Origin: Somniosus microcephalus | Lineage: Eukaryota | Direction: 5' to 3' | Length of the DNA stretch: 64,000 nucleotides | Assembly: GCA_052327205.1 (NCBI GenBank) | Contig: CM126224.1 | Location: forward strand, 39,990,001 to 40,054,000 | Part shown: in pieces, positions 26,513 through 36,141 of the stretch | Position numbering within the stretch: the first letter of the stretch is position 1 | Layout of the letters: every line of letters begins with the position of its first letter | Notes under the pieces: model-generated | Told to the model about the DNA's origin: nothing | The model's input: the letters and a program-made list of their open reading frames with translations, nothing else | Databases searched by the model: none | Translations under genes and position numbers: made by a program

Positions 26513-28501
26513 TTATTTTTAAATAATAAACACCTGGAGATGATTTAAAGACAGTAATCTATCTCAGAAAGCAAACAATGGTTCTAAATCACTCAATCTT
26601 TCCTTTTGTAATTTATGATATCATTTGGACCCCTCAATCAGATTCTGCTTCTCAACGTCTAATGAGTATTCCTTATGTCCTGCACATTAATGTTTCTTTT
26701 TGCACATTTTTAAACAACCAAACTTGGCCTTTAAACTTTGTCAGCAAATTCAAAATATAAATCAGTGGAATTAAATTCCTCTTTTTTTCAGGAAAAAAAT
26801 GGGAGACTGCCTGTGCCTCCGCATAATTAACGATCTGTCAGTGAAATCATAGGAACATGCGACTTTTAACGTATGATTTCTGGGAATCTGATTTCATTAG
26901 TGGGTCATTAATTCTGAAGAAAAACAGGCATTCTCCCATTTTTCGTCAAAAGAAGAAAAGGGACCCCCATGGTTTAAAATCCAATTATTAACCCCATTCA
27001 CCCCCACCATCAGTACAAGGCTGTGATTATGTTTCGCTGCAGACTGTCTTGTGTTGTGTTTGACACTGGCTTATGGAACTCTCGTTAAGGCGCACACCTT
27101 GTTACAAGATACAAATCATGTAACTCCCAGGGACCATATTCAAAGTGCTGGCGAAGTGTCTATAATGTAATTTAAAACCCCCAAAATCTGGAATAAAGTG
27201 CTTTGGAGCAATAAAGGCACAGGACTGAACAAAAGCTTTGGATCTGACAGTCCTCTTTAAGAGGAATTTATTGGTTCCCACTGGGTGTGCAAGTTTGATA
27301 ATAAAAGAAAGCGCTGCTTCTGGGTGGTTGAATACCAGTGGGGAAATATAAAAATGTACCAAATAAAAGGATTATTAATGCCCATTTAAGGGGCTGGTCA
27401 AACCCCAAAACTTTTTGCTTAAAATAAAATGATATTTTTACAGTTTGGAAATCGAAAACCTCACTCGCAAATTATTCACTCAGAGCAACACAGGACTAAA
27501 CTGTCACCCATCAAGTTAAACGGTGTGATTTACTACATGTACTTTCTCCCCCACCCCGCCTTTTCTGTCACTGTTGCTAGTAGAGGCTAAGGTTAATGCT
27601 CGCAACTGGGTCGACTGGATACTGTTGCGCTCAGACTCGCCAGACCTTTTGCACTCGCCATTCATGTTTTATGACCAGCTTCAAAAAAAGCCCTGTTTTA
27701 TTGCAAGTCAGACCTAGGAAAGGGGGCTTTTTGCTCGATATTTGACACTTCCGAGCAGCATTTTTTTCTTCCTTTGTTTTAAACAAAACACGGCTAAACT
27801 ACACGAGACATTTTCCTGTCGGCGTTGCATGGGGAAAGCATAATACTTTAGTCATATCAATGTATCTTTGATTGGACCCAAGTATATCGTAAACCAGGGG
27901 AGACTTCATTTGGGGTTCTGTCTGTTGTGGCGAGAAGCGAGAAAGCGGGACTTAAAAGGAAAGAATCACCTCCTAATTCTTTCTCCCTGGGTGGTACTTG
28001 CCTTTAATCATTGTCTGGAAATGAACAGGAAAGGACGGGTCATCCCCTGTGTTTGAATTGCATCGCGTTATAGCATAATGTGATCTGTCAACGTGAGTTG
28101 TTTTCTTAAAACCAAGCTGTTTGAGGCATTCGAAAAATACAAAGAACTCCGTTTTTTTTCCCCAAAAAGCCAAAATAAGTTGTGATTTGCATGACAAGCC
28201 TCATTCCCCTCCACCCCCACACCCCAAACAAGAACAACACTGTCCATGGTGGGAGGCTCAGAGATAACGTTAAGCTCCAAATAGGCAGCATCTGTTTTGC
28301 TGGGTTGCCGATCCACTTTTCATACATAGCCTTGCTTGACAACAAAAGAAAACAGATACAGACACAAAAAGCGCTACCTTACAGAGGTCCAAACGGTTCA
28401 AACCGCAATATTAGTTTCTGCTCTGACCAAAATGTGAGCTTTATCACAGTCTGCGAGCAAAGCTGTCTCATTTCCACAGTGCGAACTTACCTAAAATGGG
28501 A

Positions 28502-28742
28502 AATAACAACAGAAAACGCTGGAAAAACTCAGCAGGCCAGGCAACATCCGTGGAGAGAGAAACAGAGTCAACGTTTCAGGTCGAAACCCTTCTACAGAAC
28601 TGTACAGGTTCTGTGGAAGGGTTTCGACCCGAAACATTAACTCTGTTTCTCGCTCCACAGATGTTGCCTGGCCTGCTGAGTTTTTCCAGCGTTTTCTGTT
28701 GTTATTTCGGATTTCCTGCATCCGCAGTATTTTGCTATCATA
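28502..28742. mobile_element. Penelope-like element palindromic insertion (inverted terminal-repeat pair)
   Basis: Arms of about 100 bp fold back around ~28603; the right arm carries an extra tail ending ttttgctatc. Perfect 15-bp TSD ttacctaaaatggga at 28487-28501 and 28743-28757. Confidence 0.9.
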
Positions 28743-29914
28743 TTACCTAAAATGGGATCGGTTTTCCCAACGTGAGCTCTCGTCACAAACCGAACACATT
28801 TCAGCCTCAGCTTGCAAACCTCATGGATTGGAGACCTGAGCATTGGATCTTAGGTCCCTACAGTCCGAGCAAAGATCGCACTGCTGGTCGTTATGGTCCC
28901 GCTTAGAGCGCCCACCGCCAAACAAAATGGCAGCTCAGAGTATCCCGGCTGCCAGTGCCAGTGTTGGTGCTATGTCTCCAGTAGCACAGGAACAAGCCGC
29001 AGCTTGAGCTGGAGGCTTTAGAGTTTGTAGAGTGCTGCAGTTGGAGTTGGACCTGTGCTGTAAGATAATTACACAGTGAAGCAGTTCAGATACTGGTTTG
29101 AGTTCAGAAATATTATGCTTTATTAGTGTAAGAAACTCTTCAAAAATTGACAATGTCTGCAAGCTTATTGCAGCCGCCATGGCTATCTCGACTAGGGGGA
29201 AGCAATTTAATGTCTCTAAAGTAGGGGATCAACCAGTACGGATGCCCTTGATAGATAATCATATATTGGGTCTGGTTGAAGGATGGTTTAATGGGCTGAA
29301 TGGCCTCTTCCCACTCTGGATTTTCTTATGTTATTTCTTAACCACTCTTAAGGTGAGTTTGAAGAGTGGGAAGACAAACAAAACTTGACTAGTAATAACA
29401 GGTGTTCCATCAGTAATATTGAGGGTACATTTAAAAATCAAGTGTTAGAGAAGTTCTGCTGTAATGTCCCACACAAAATAAACTTTAGCAAATAACCTCT
29501 TCTGCTTCTCCATTCTCTAACAGTATGTGACATGTATTAGTTCTATTCCCCAATGTCAGAAATAGTTCTGCCTCCTCCCATTTTCTCCGCTCCTATCCGG
29601 AACGGGTTGGGACACGGTTCCACTGATGTTCGGAGCCCCCCCCCACTTCACTACATCTTCCCAAGTGGCCATTCGATATGTGTGAGCCTTGACAGTTAGT
29701 GTCAGTCCGGTGTTTAATCATGGAGTGAATCGTAGCCAAGCCCCATTCTGTCCTCCCCTGGTCCCCACACATTCACTTTAACAACAGGAGTCACTGCATA
29801 GTGATTAGGAGAGCAAACCCCACTTGATTTATTTCCCCCATGCCCATCCAATTGTCTCACCTCAGATGAACAAATTCAACTCAGACCAGTGATCAAACAT
29901 GCCCCAATCCAACA

Positions 29915-32499: not shown

Positions 32500-32945
32500 C
32501 TTTTCAGTGTGACCCCCAGCAAATACTGACACACTCCCAGGGACATGCTCACAGGGACACATTACAACTACTGACATACACATAGGGACTTCTGCAAATA
32601 CTGACGCACTCACAAATATATTCTACAAATACAAACACACTCACAGGGACACGCAATAATTACTGACACACTCCCAAGGGCTTATTACAAACACTGGCAC
32701 ACTCCCAGGGACCAACGTTCCCGCTATGCTGCGCGGCCGGGCAGTGGTCTGGAGGTCCCACGCAGGCTGCTCACGGGCTTTTCAATGTAAATAACCACGC
32801 ATGCGTGCAAAATTGAATGGACTGTGCAACCAGTTAAAGGGCTTTCGCACCACCAAAAAAATGACAGGGAACATTGCTAGGGACCCCTGTTAAAACTGAC
32901 ACACTCATGGAAATGTGCTACGAATACTGACACACTCCCGGCGAC
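32500..32945. repeat. Degenerate ~33-bp minisatellite (caaatactgacacactcccagggac-like units)
   Basis: Repeated tactgacacactc motif on both sides of the hAT MITE. Confidence 0.7.
32713..32876. mobile_element. hAT-type MITE
   Basis: TIRs caacgttccc and gggaacattg; 8-bp TSD ccagggac / ctagggac with one mismatch. Confidence 0.75.
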
Positions 32946-33846
32946 ATGAGAATAGACCTCTGAAAGGCAGCATTTGCTACTCGAAAGGAATCATGTCCAT
33001 CAATCTGGAAAATGTGTTTTTTTTTACTAGTATGTCACTACAGAAGTCAACAAATAAAGAAATTGGATGACCCCGTTGATTCTCTGGGATATTCTTGAAG
33101 ACCCGCTGCAGTCTTGAAACCTCATTATAAAACCCTATGATTTATTACACCAATAAGCAGAGCAATAGCTGACAGCATTTCATAATGGGCGAAGGCAGTG
33201 GCCAAGAGCATTATTTTTCAATCAGTGGCCCTTTTATCAGATGGGAAGCAGTAATCTGTCATCCAAGTAGCATCAAATTGTAGCTTGTATCAAGAAATCC
33301 TAAACATATTCAGCCATTTTAGGCAGACTGCAAGAACTAAAGAAAGGAATTGAATTTATATAGCATCTTATCACATCCTTAGGATATCCCAAAGCGCTTT
33401 ACAGCCAATAGATTACTTTTGTGAAGTACAATCACCAATCACAGTTGTTAAGCATGCAAACATGGCAGCCAAATTTGTGCACAAAAAAGTCCCACAAATA
33501 GAAAATGACCAAATAATTTGTTTTTAGTATTGTTTGTTGAGGAACATGGCTGGCCAGGAAACCGGGCAAAATCCATGCTATTCTTGAAATAGTAACACGG
33601 GACCCTTTACATCCACAGACAGGGTCTTGGTTTAATATCTTACCTGAAAGACAGCACCTCCGCCAATACAGCACTCCCTCAGCATTGTACGAATGTGCCA
33701 GCCTAGATTATTTACTCAAGTCTGTAGTGGGCTTGAACCCACAGCTCACAGTTTGAGAGTTGAGCAAGCAACTCTCCATTGTTTTGCCTGCTGATGCCAA
33801 TCAATGGGCGAGAATGGACATCATTTCTCACATGAAAACTCATCAC

Positions 33847-34808
33847 TTAATGACATTTCAACATTTTTGTCACTGGGCAATTATATACAAATACAGACAT
33901 GAGACGTGACACTATGTAGACCAGAAGATCTCAAGTTCAGTGGTTGGTCTATGCTGAGCTAATTGATCTTAGCCAGAATGCTTCAAGTGGCCCCAACTCC
34001 CCTACCCTACCCTACCCTAAGGAGTGGAGAAATCGGCCAGGGATTCTGCTCCTGATCATTACCCCGTAACTCTGTTGGTCAGCTCGTGCGTGGATGGATA
34101 GTATGCTTGACTGCGATGTCCTCTGCACTTGAATAGCCTGGCACCATTCACCATGAAGACTGATCACTTGGCGGAGGTACCAGAGCTGGAGAATGAGGAA
34201 CCTTCAGGATTGGGGGTGGGGAGGTTGGCAAAAAGAAAATTGATAAGCTACTGAAAAGATGTTTGGAAGAAGATTTATTTTCCAAAAGATATACAATGTG
34301 ATAATGCTACAGTTTCACAGTTGTGTCTGAACAGGTTTGTTACTTAAAAAACACAAACAAACCTATTAAATATATTGCGATAGCAAAATACTGCAGATGT
34401 TGGAAATCTGAAATAACAACAGAAAATGCTGGAAAAACTCAGCAGGTCAGGCAACATCTGTGGAGAGAAATTTGAGTTGACGTTTCGGGTCGAACCCTTC
34501 TTCATGAATGGTGCCAGGCTATTCAAGTGCAGAGGACATCGCAGTCAAGCATACTATCCATCAACACACAAGCTGACCAACAGAGTTACGGGGTAATGAT
34601 CAGGAGCAGAATCCCTGGCCGATTTCTCCACTCCTTAGGGTAGGGTAGGGTAGGGGAGTTGGGGCCACTTGAAGCATTCTGCCTAAGATCAATTAGCTCA
34701 GCATGGACCAACCACTGAACTTGAGATCTTCTGGCCTACATAGGGTCACATCTCATGTCTGTATTTGTATGTAATTGCCCAGTGACAAAAATGTTGAAAT
34801 GTCATTAA
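33847..34808. repeat. Long inverted repeat with arms 33847-34150 and 34505-34808
   Basis: About 304-bp arms with 9 substitutions by my count (~97% identity), including a shared private (cctac)n tract and non-SINE flank. Confidence 0.95.
34377..34504 (-). mobile_element. Penelope-like terminal repeat (tail through hammerhead)
   Basis: gatagcaaaatactgcagatg...gacgtttcgggtcgaacccttcttca, same family as 28502-28742 and 23656-24037. Confidence 0.88.
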
Positions 34809-34959
34809 ATATATTATTGTTAATGTGAAATAAAGACAATTGGAGCATGACACACTATGTCGCTGGAGCAGAGAAATCTGTTGACTTTTATAGTGCTTTC
34901 CCCACCTCCCCCCTCCTTCTTAACCAAATGCTAATCTTTATCTTTTTCTCTCTAATGAG

Positions 34960-35095
34960 GCCTACTTCGCTCAACCCATGGTTGCTGCCGCTGTTATTGT
35001 CCACCTGGCTACTGATGGAAGTAGTCTCATGGATCAAAGGCAAGAATCAATCGCAGTTCAGTTGGTTGACACAAAGGATCAGAATCACGACCTGG
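34960..35095 (+). CDS. PAPPA: PAPPA internal coding exon D (AYFAQPMVAAAVIVHLATDGSSLMDQRQESIAVQLVDTKDQNHDL)
   Basis: 136 nt, |gtaagt donor, acceptor tgag| (GAG) after a pyrimidine tract with a CTAAT branch motif. Homologous to human AYFSQPMVAAAVIVHLVTDG...VQLLDTKDQSHDLG. Confidence 0.95.
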
Positions 35096-36141
35096 GTAAG
35101 TCTTTTTCTTTTTGAAACTCAAAGGATCATATTTAGAAAGGATGTAGTTATCTCCGAGCCTGAAGGAAGTTCAAACGGCTCAATTAGTGGAGTGGTCCGT
35201 GTACTGAGGATCAGCACCACGAGGATACACTTCGGGAATGACTCAAACAAAGACCAGCAACTGAAAAGGGTGAAAGGAAAACCAAGTGAGGCAATCTCAC
35301 ACACACACATCTTTGCTTCCTTCAAAAGATAATCTCATGCCGTGTCTTTAAAATGCGCAAAGCTCTTTCTCAGTAAAAGCACACATCCACAATCAGGTTC
35401 TTTTCCCTGCTTGCCTTTGAGTTCTACTTAGTGCTCTTTCTTTCTCCTGAGTTAATTTTATTTAGGTGCTTTTATATTGTCACACCTTTTTCCGAGAGCT
35501 CACAGCTCTCCACCTGGTGCCATCCACTGGCCTCTGCTACTGCTGAAACGAGAGAAGTCTGGCCCTGTTATAATTTCAAGTATAGCCGACAGTGTGAAAA
35601 AGCTGTGCATTTGCTGTTGACTGTACTTTCAACACGTAAAAGCACCTTTTTTTATGGTCCAGTTATACTGTAGCTTTTGCATCTATGCAACAGTTTTCAC
35701 ATCGCAATGACACAAAACCTGCACTATTACTGGGGCAAATTCTGGCAAATAGAGAGAAGCCTTCTTGAATCTCATAGTAACTGCCACCTCTGTGTCCCCT
35801 GACCAGACCTGGCAGTATAACTCTGCGCTGCTGACTCACAACACTCTGAAGAACACATTTATACACCAACTGTGACTTTGCAGCAAAGCAGTCCATGCTC
35901 CACTGTGATGCTAAAACTGGAGTGTAAACAAGGATTTATCCATGCCAAATCCCAACAGGTCATAGCCGAGCAGCAGAAATGAAACCCCCAGCAGCCTTGG
36001 AGCTCACCCCCAAACTTCAGAACACAAGTCTTTTGTAGCTCAGGTTTAGAAGTACAGAGTAGCAGGTGTCCATCTCTCGATGTCGAAGATGTGAGAATGT
36101 CCAACAGCTTCACACTGATTTCAAAAACCAGGAAGTCATAT

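Follow-up and report, generated by a model that had tools for sequence, protein, structure and literature searches.

The window, a 64,000-nt stretch of the genome of Somniosus microcephalus, includes a coding exon on the plus strand that was identified as part of PAPPA (Pappalysin-1; E 7e-17). The intron preceding this exon was found to carry a composite insert, in which a 128-nt fragment of a Penelope-like element (PLE), antisense to the gene, is followed by a reverse-complement copy of sequence from the same intron. A target-site duplication brackets the whole (Table 1). The inverted arm and its source could be aligned without gaps at 97.0% identity, and a (cctac)n tract is present within both aligned arms. 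The exon starts 152 nt beyond the stem that the arms could form, just downstream as the original prediction had placed it. A degenerate tandem repeat with a unit of ~31 nt was seen further upstream, at 32504-32943.

Table 1. Features of the PAPPA intron insert and of the insertions used for comparison
Feature	Coordinates	Strand	Remarks
Host source segment	33847..34159	+	~100 nt of near single-copy intron flank and part of a dispersed SINE-like (candidate) repeat with (cctac)n
Microhomology letters of source	34154-34159		within host source segment
Left copy of 12-bp target-site duplication	34365..34376	+	single copy in organism C
PLE 3' fragment, young subfamily	34377..34504	-	tail start to 5' edge of hammerhead core
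Minimal hammerhead-like motif	34474..34504	-	cut short inside stem I; from sequence and standard hammerhead layout
Inverted copy of 33847-34150	34505..34808	-	295/304 identical
Right copy of duplication	34804..34815	+	first 5 letters are also the inverted arm end
PAPPA coding exon	34960..35095	+	splice sites read from sequence
Two-armed ordinary PLE insertion, comparison case	28487..28757	.	15-bp duplication
L416	1490-2898 of G000:C14:8839689-8842736	-	hairpin copy of head-side flank
L107	787-914 and 1565-1692 of G000:C7:184224620-184227653		direct copy between inverted arms

On the plus strand of the window, the 12-mer of the target-site duplication occurs only at 34365 and 34804. Five of the 12 letters in the right copy double as the end of the host arm, and the chance of finding the 7 independent letters at a fixed place is 1.6e-4. 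The two microhomologies noted originally were confirmed in the sequence. At the inner junction, TCTTCA is common to the PLE end (34499-34504) and the host, and after it the copy carries a 3-nt gap relative to the host; at the outer junction, ATTAA is common to the host arm end and the right duplication. Elevated repeat depth is confined to ~33957-34130 of the source segment, and a 32-mer from the non-repeat part of the arm has exactly two occurrences in the 6.4-Gb assembly, one in the source and one in the copy, so the arm is a local copy as had been proposed. Same-species contigs provide cover of the arm and extend 23-30 letters across either outer junction (the bridging rule being 31 letters), and none of the contigs listed bridges the inner junction, 34504/34505. 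The composite insert, a PLE fragment and a reverse-complement copy of local host DNA inside one 12-bp target-site duplication, is confirmed as real.

Copies of the PLE family were gathered by exact patterns, and a 28-mer of the PLE piece was found to have at least 3,939 exact matches in the genome. The piece differs at 2 positions from the majority of 146 copies. Family sequence runs on past the stop point of the insert in 29 of the first 30 loci, thus the piece is 5'-truncated, and 34504 was rejected as the natural 5' end of the element. The continuing sequence leads into an ORF with a C-terminal GIY-YIG endonuclease domain (PF01541; 23.1 bits against a cut-off of 22.6 in a longer family member, L024). 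Upstream of the nuclease lies a 322-aa open frame with a YIDD motif, for which a Pfam search gave no match. Two 3' start points, ~33 nt apart, are used by family copies, here termed tail and tail-less. The GIY-YIG ORF, the two start points and the inverted insertions with duplications described below uphold the original identification of the element as a PLE. Internally deleted variants, with the 3' end joined to sequence from the 5' part of the element, were seen at L009, L010 and L183, and same-strand copies 2-6 kb apart, possibly tandem arrays, at C37 61853497-61873037 and 62791673-62806257.

A putative hammerhead ribozyme, with core, stem II and the GAAA-CGUC layout, is visible in the PLE piece. 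The motif gave no Rfam match at the gathering score, and folding of the fragment gave a z of -0.13. The young subfamily has U at C3 (34499-34504, minus strand), and the older copies in the window (9279, 23750 and 40800) keep C. We take cleavage at the predicted GUC to fall between 34479 and 34478 from the standard hammerhead layout, which places the junction at 34504 ~26 nt from the cut site. The original claim that reverse transcription had run to the hammerhead end therefore held for the 5' edge of the core and not for the ribozyme cut. Among young arms that reach family position 122, 58 of 218 end within a 13-nt zone (positions 122-134), and for the 15 nt that follow the figure is 9 of 160; in loci chosen for an intact 28-mer, 5 of 77 arms end in the zone. 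Per base, arm stops at this edge (~34499-34511 in the window) are ~5 times as frequent as those just beyond it. As the ribozyme cut site is the end point of 13 of 262 arms, compared with the 58 of 218 at the 5' edge, it was rejected as the origin of the junction. The stop cluster may reflect either a reverse-transcriptase stop or an RNA start. No local host arm was found in the 26 other exact copies that leave family sequence at the same letter (27 with the insert).

In a survey of the family, 447 loci (449 less two duplicates of L107) were resolved into 383 insertions, 32 of which ran off the locus, and the remaining 351, including the insert, were scored. This sample is non-random, being pattern-picked and rich in tail starts and in contigs C1-C2, with 0.4-3 kb of flank visible. 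Inverted insertions make up 143 of the 351, and 127 of these have an adjacent duplication. Duplication length is 10-18 bp in 140 of 141 cases, with a mode of 14, and the 12 bp of the insert is normal for the family. The segment 28502-28742 of the window, originally described as an inverted self-copy, is one, with a 15-bp duplication.

Inverted insertions pair a tail-start arm with a tail-less arm in 106 of 115 cases and two tail-start arms in 4; examples are L013/L014, L020/L021, L028/L029 and 28487-28757 in the window. This pairing and the frequency of inversion provide genomic support for two-ended priming that would be routine and would use a different start point at each end. Short junction fillers made of repeated duplication or element-end pieces, resembling slipped re-priming, were also seen at L056 (1528-1556) and L004 (1533-1558).

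The orthologous site was examined in relatives through contigs from 6 of the 24 listed runs and two RNA runs, organism D being left out for thin coverage. Organism C has an empty site, as one of its contigs reads 33664-34364 and then 34804-35600, and it retains the host source segment. An empty site lacking both parts of the insert had been anticipated in a related shark. Organism B shares the insert, with contigs that reach 30 nt into the PLE tail and a right junction contig that starts 25 nt inside the arm, and the insert ends match those of the window species.

In organism E, the left contig contains the flank and then 23 nt of PLE tail, and in a second contig 33 letters of PLE, inverted and tail-less, run straight into 34805. 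The source segment is crossed by one unbroken contig, and at a depth of 5-6 the contigs gave no cover of the host arm at 34737-34783 and no joint at 34504. At this site, organism E thus has a PLE of the usual two-armed kind and no trace of the host arm, as read from two single contigs at depth 5-6 in one run. An orthologue with the PLE and without the arm had been named in advance as refuting the original prediction, and organism E is such an orthologue. Three states of the site therefore occur among relatives: empty, two-armed PLE, and PLE with host arm. An extra cctac unit is present in both arms in the window species and absent from organisms C and E, thus it is likely that the host copy postdates the splits from C and E. 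A 14-nt piece at 34868 is present in organisms B, C and E and lost in the window species, a recent deletion between insert and exon.

The young subfamily is almost absent from organism E, with a depth of 46 at 34491 versus 1.5 million in the window species (single-copy depths ~5 and ~32, respectively). The left contig of organism E has 3 inserted letters and ends 3 nt earlier than the contigs of the window species, a difference that would fit a PLE with a different start point. We read the data from these two contigs, at depth 5-6, as favouring an independent insertion in organism E.

Among the 351 scored insertions, 181 have a duplication directly at the element end and 151 have none. A screen of the 170 that lack an adjacent duplication, for local matches 24 nt or longer at 93% identity, flagged 10 loci. 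Seven of these are repeats, leaving the insert, L107 and L416. Six (L100, L112, L161, L202, L242 and L361) were dropped from the count as insertions into tandem repeats and L134 as a dispersed repeat. Candidates from looser passes (L110, L121, L170, L183 and L403) were also dropped, as were L220, L221, L326, L327 and others, which are repeats or have an adjacent duplication. The dropped candidates inspected individually were L134, L361 and the five from the looser passes.

Local host DNA inside the duplication was therefore found in 2 of 350 other insertions (~0.6%; 95% interval 0.07-2.0%), and an inverted local copy in 1 of 350. The family thus does make local host duplications, in line with the original prediction; the exact geometry of the insert (tail-side, inverted, with a long loop) was found in 0 of the 350. 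The hairpin copy in L416 comprises 438 nt of head-side flank and has its centre in a self-complementary 14-bp duplication. The copy has only 1 mismatch, hence L416 is very young, and the zero-spacer hairpin points to a DNA template. In L107, a 13-bp duplication encloses two PLE arms separated by 128 nt of tail-side flank (local repeat DNA) in direct orientation, and a 36-mer of the copied segment has only two occurrences in the genome. PLE-driven duplication of local host DNA is real but rare, at ~0.6%.

The explanation we favour, and consider somewhat better than an even bet, is that a truncated PLE was joined to inverted upstream flank within a single insertion event, when the end of the new cDNA folded back on host DNA that was single-stranded. 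The PLE protein would cut both strands 12-14 nt apart, and the left 3' end would be extended on element RNA from the tail start, stopping after 128 nt at a frequent stop of the family. Ordinarily the cDNA end would meet a second PLE cDNA coming from the opposite side; here it would anneal via TCTTCA to its own strand ~220 nt upstream, laid bare by 5' resection. The annealed end would slip 3 nt, and either the PLE reverse transcriptase or a repair polymerase of the host would then synthesise ~300 nt. The new end would finally pair via ATTAA with the overhang of the right end, and gap filling would complete the duplication. The two-armed PLE of organism E would have arisen separately, by another insertion at this cut site.

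In favour of such a foldback are the empty site of organism C, which lacks either part, the normal duplication length and the two parallel cases, L416 and L107. L416 shows that DNA foldback synthesis of this length occurs at insertions of the family. Divergence between the host arms (3.0%) is near the 80th percentile for twin arms of the young subfamily (mean 1.4%, 75th percentile 2.6%, 90th percentile 3.7%; 92 pairs). Judged from the rows of the relatives, 8 of the 9 arm differences appear to fall on the copy (p 0.04, tentative), and such a concentration would tentatively fit error-prone copying. Against it, a second independent insertion at the same site is needed in organism E and the target preference of the family is only moderate; the foldback also presumes resection of more than 500 nt and a polymerase.

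It is unlikely, in our estimation, that the insert arose in two steps, namely a two-armed PLE palindrome that formed before organism E split off and a later template switch at the hairpin tip that replaced its right arm. In detail, and with the same low probability, a fork or break at the tip would have copied 300 nt of upstream flank backwards and rejoined at the hairpin base. Such an origin would account for the two-armed PLE at the same site in organism E, with no joint at 34504 and in the standard layout of the family (106 of 115 inverted insertions). The PLE piece also ends where short family palindromes are often centred, the hairpin base would explain why the second junction falls at the duplication, and the tentative excess of differences on the copy (8 of 9, p 0.04) is compatible with it. 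However, the young subfamily is nearly absent from organism E, whose left and right junctions seem to be offset from those of the window species by 3 nt and 1 nt, respectively, and the evidence from that organism comes from the same two contigs of a single run, each at depth 5-6. In addition, the age of the host arms is towards the old end of the range for the subfamily, so the second step would have had to follow fast.

The original prediction had the polymerase jump to a plus-strand template, either top-strand DNA or nascent PAPPA pre-mRNA. The strand is not fixed by the product because, with microhomology at both junctions, priming could have come from either end. The proposed test of strand bias for an RNA template was rejected on logic, as every side and orientation fits DNA and RNA templates alike. 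A jump of the reverse transcriptase from element RNA to the pre-mRNA, copying 300 nt of intron, appears improbable. The orientation is compatible with it, PAPPA being on the plus strand, 300 nt would suit a processive reverse transcriptase, and the available text of PMC10191854 reports one such case for L1. However, nothing points to RNA at this locus: the one unambiguous parallel, L416, is a zero-spacer DNA hairpin, and A-to-G changes do not cluster in the copy, where they account for 1 of 9 differences. As the source is intronic throughout, splicing would have left no mark in it. None of the three sources is further than ~720 nt from the cut, as with resection, and in L1, in the parts of the literature available, DNA foldbacks outnumber the RNA case several times over.

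Re-use of an occupied site, with a young PLE cutting at the boundaries of an older two-armed PLE that persists in organism E and taking its place, the foldback arising in this second event, has in our view little chance of being correct. It would reconcile the site shared with organism E and the young arm in the window species; according to PMC6765202, PLEs insert within older copies or next to them, and family sequence precedes 13 of 375 arms. However, inspection of the 14 lowest-identity pairs among 115 identified five loci with a young copy beside an older inverted arm (L052, L129, L144, L183 and L244), and these read as nested insertions rather than arm exchange. A full replacement would also leave no trace in one genome.

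Synthesis in the opposite direction has a lower standing still. The right 3' end would have annealed to the minus strand of the left flank at 33847-33851, served there as primer for synthesis towards 34159, and then met the PLE cDNA. Microhomology at both junctions agrees with this, and PLE proteins extend both strands in vitro according to the available part of PMC11167929, but invasion of the left duplex on 5 nt of homology would be required and the template would be the strand removed by resection. An assembly artefact, or two unrelated SINE copies, can be virtually dismissed even though no listed contig spans 34504/34505 and much of the arm is repeat: the arm takes in non-repeat flank with just two occurrences in the genome, 9 differences set the two arms apart, independent contigs agree with the arm to within 0-1 differences, the insert ends recur unchanged in a second species and the empty site of a third is clean.

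A functional dsRNA stem had also been suggested. All 9 arm differences are one-sided, with no compensatory change, and the polypyrimidine tract and likely branch region of the exon lie outside the stem. No RNA run was listed as containing the stretch, and two RNA runs with the same species label, of which about 24% and 31% were read, gave 0 reads on the exon or the arms. There is no evidence for any function of the locus, including as a dsRNA stem.

The survey and the PAPPA insert provide the first rate estimate (2/350, 95% interval 0.07-2.0%) and germline examples of this outcome for a PLE, and speak for a double-strand break with resectable ends as an intermediate of PLE insertion. Given the at least 3,939 near-identical arms, tens of such duplications would be expected in the genome. 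The three-state site offers a ready test of a one-step versus a two-step origin and of same-site insertion. A broader and rather doubtful proposal is that PLEs re-cut palindrome-occupied sites, or re-hit one cut site in sister lineages, and that the reverse transcriptase itself continues from element RNA onto neighbouring resected host DNA or nascent pre-mRNA, giving a steady supply of 100-450 bp local duplications in very-high-copy genomes.

The family shares the canonical anatomy of EN+ PLEs as described in the available literature, with a GIY-YIG ORF, a hammerhead predicted in the pLTR, and inverted copies with duplications. EN+ PLE insertions in which the accompanying copy is inverted and 5'-truncated and a 30-40 bp tail is present on one side only are described in the accessible portions of PMC3846280 and PMC8557442, the former of which mentions host DNA captured into the PLE spacer. 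The PAPPA insert is unlike these canonical insertions in that the second PLE arm is missing and host DNA is in its place. In the part of PMC11167929 available, the PLE protein cuts and extends both strands and ribozyme cleavage is dispensable; the two start points ~33 nt apart match the tail signature reported there. Class 2 templated sequence insertions (PMC5110952, available in part) likewise copy a DNA patch into a break, but as described there they are templated from distant regions and have no tie to retroelement insertion, unlike the PAPPA insert. No report of a local host foldback at a PLE insertion was found in a literature search that reached few subscription papers.

The closest likeness is to human L1, for which this kind of event has already been described (PMC10191854, PMC11702581, both in their available sections). 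Nam et al. 2023 (PMC10191854), in the text available, report foldback inverted duplications of 52-220 bp at 3 somatic L1 insertions (0.3%) and 1 further case that includes an internal inversion, and attribute them to additional DNA synthesis as the insertion is resolved. As at PAPPA, these combine a retrotransposon fragment with inverted adjacent host DNA at a target-primed site and are rare, and the PLE rate of ~0.6% is close to the 0.3% of those reported L1 foldbacks. The same portion of that study includes one co-insertion of nearby pre-mRNA (Extended Data Fig. 9g), which is what the RNA option would amount to; an RNA template is without support in the PAPPA insert.

The available sections of PMC11702581 (Figs S9-S10 and 8A) describe three local inversions at L1 insertions, one of them an inverted duplication, and three templated pieces, and explain these events by resection, self-annealing and fill-in at the cut ends. 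Those cases share junctional microhomology with the PAPPA insert, and L416 closely resembles the inverted-duplication case. The examples worked through in those sections concern the reciprocal end, whereas the reverse-transcribed end is likelier here. What is new is the demonstration, for a PLE, of an outcome known from human L1, together with its rate and a three-state site.
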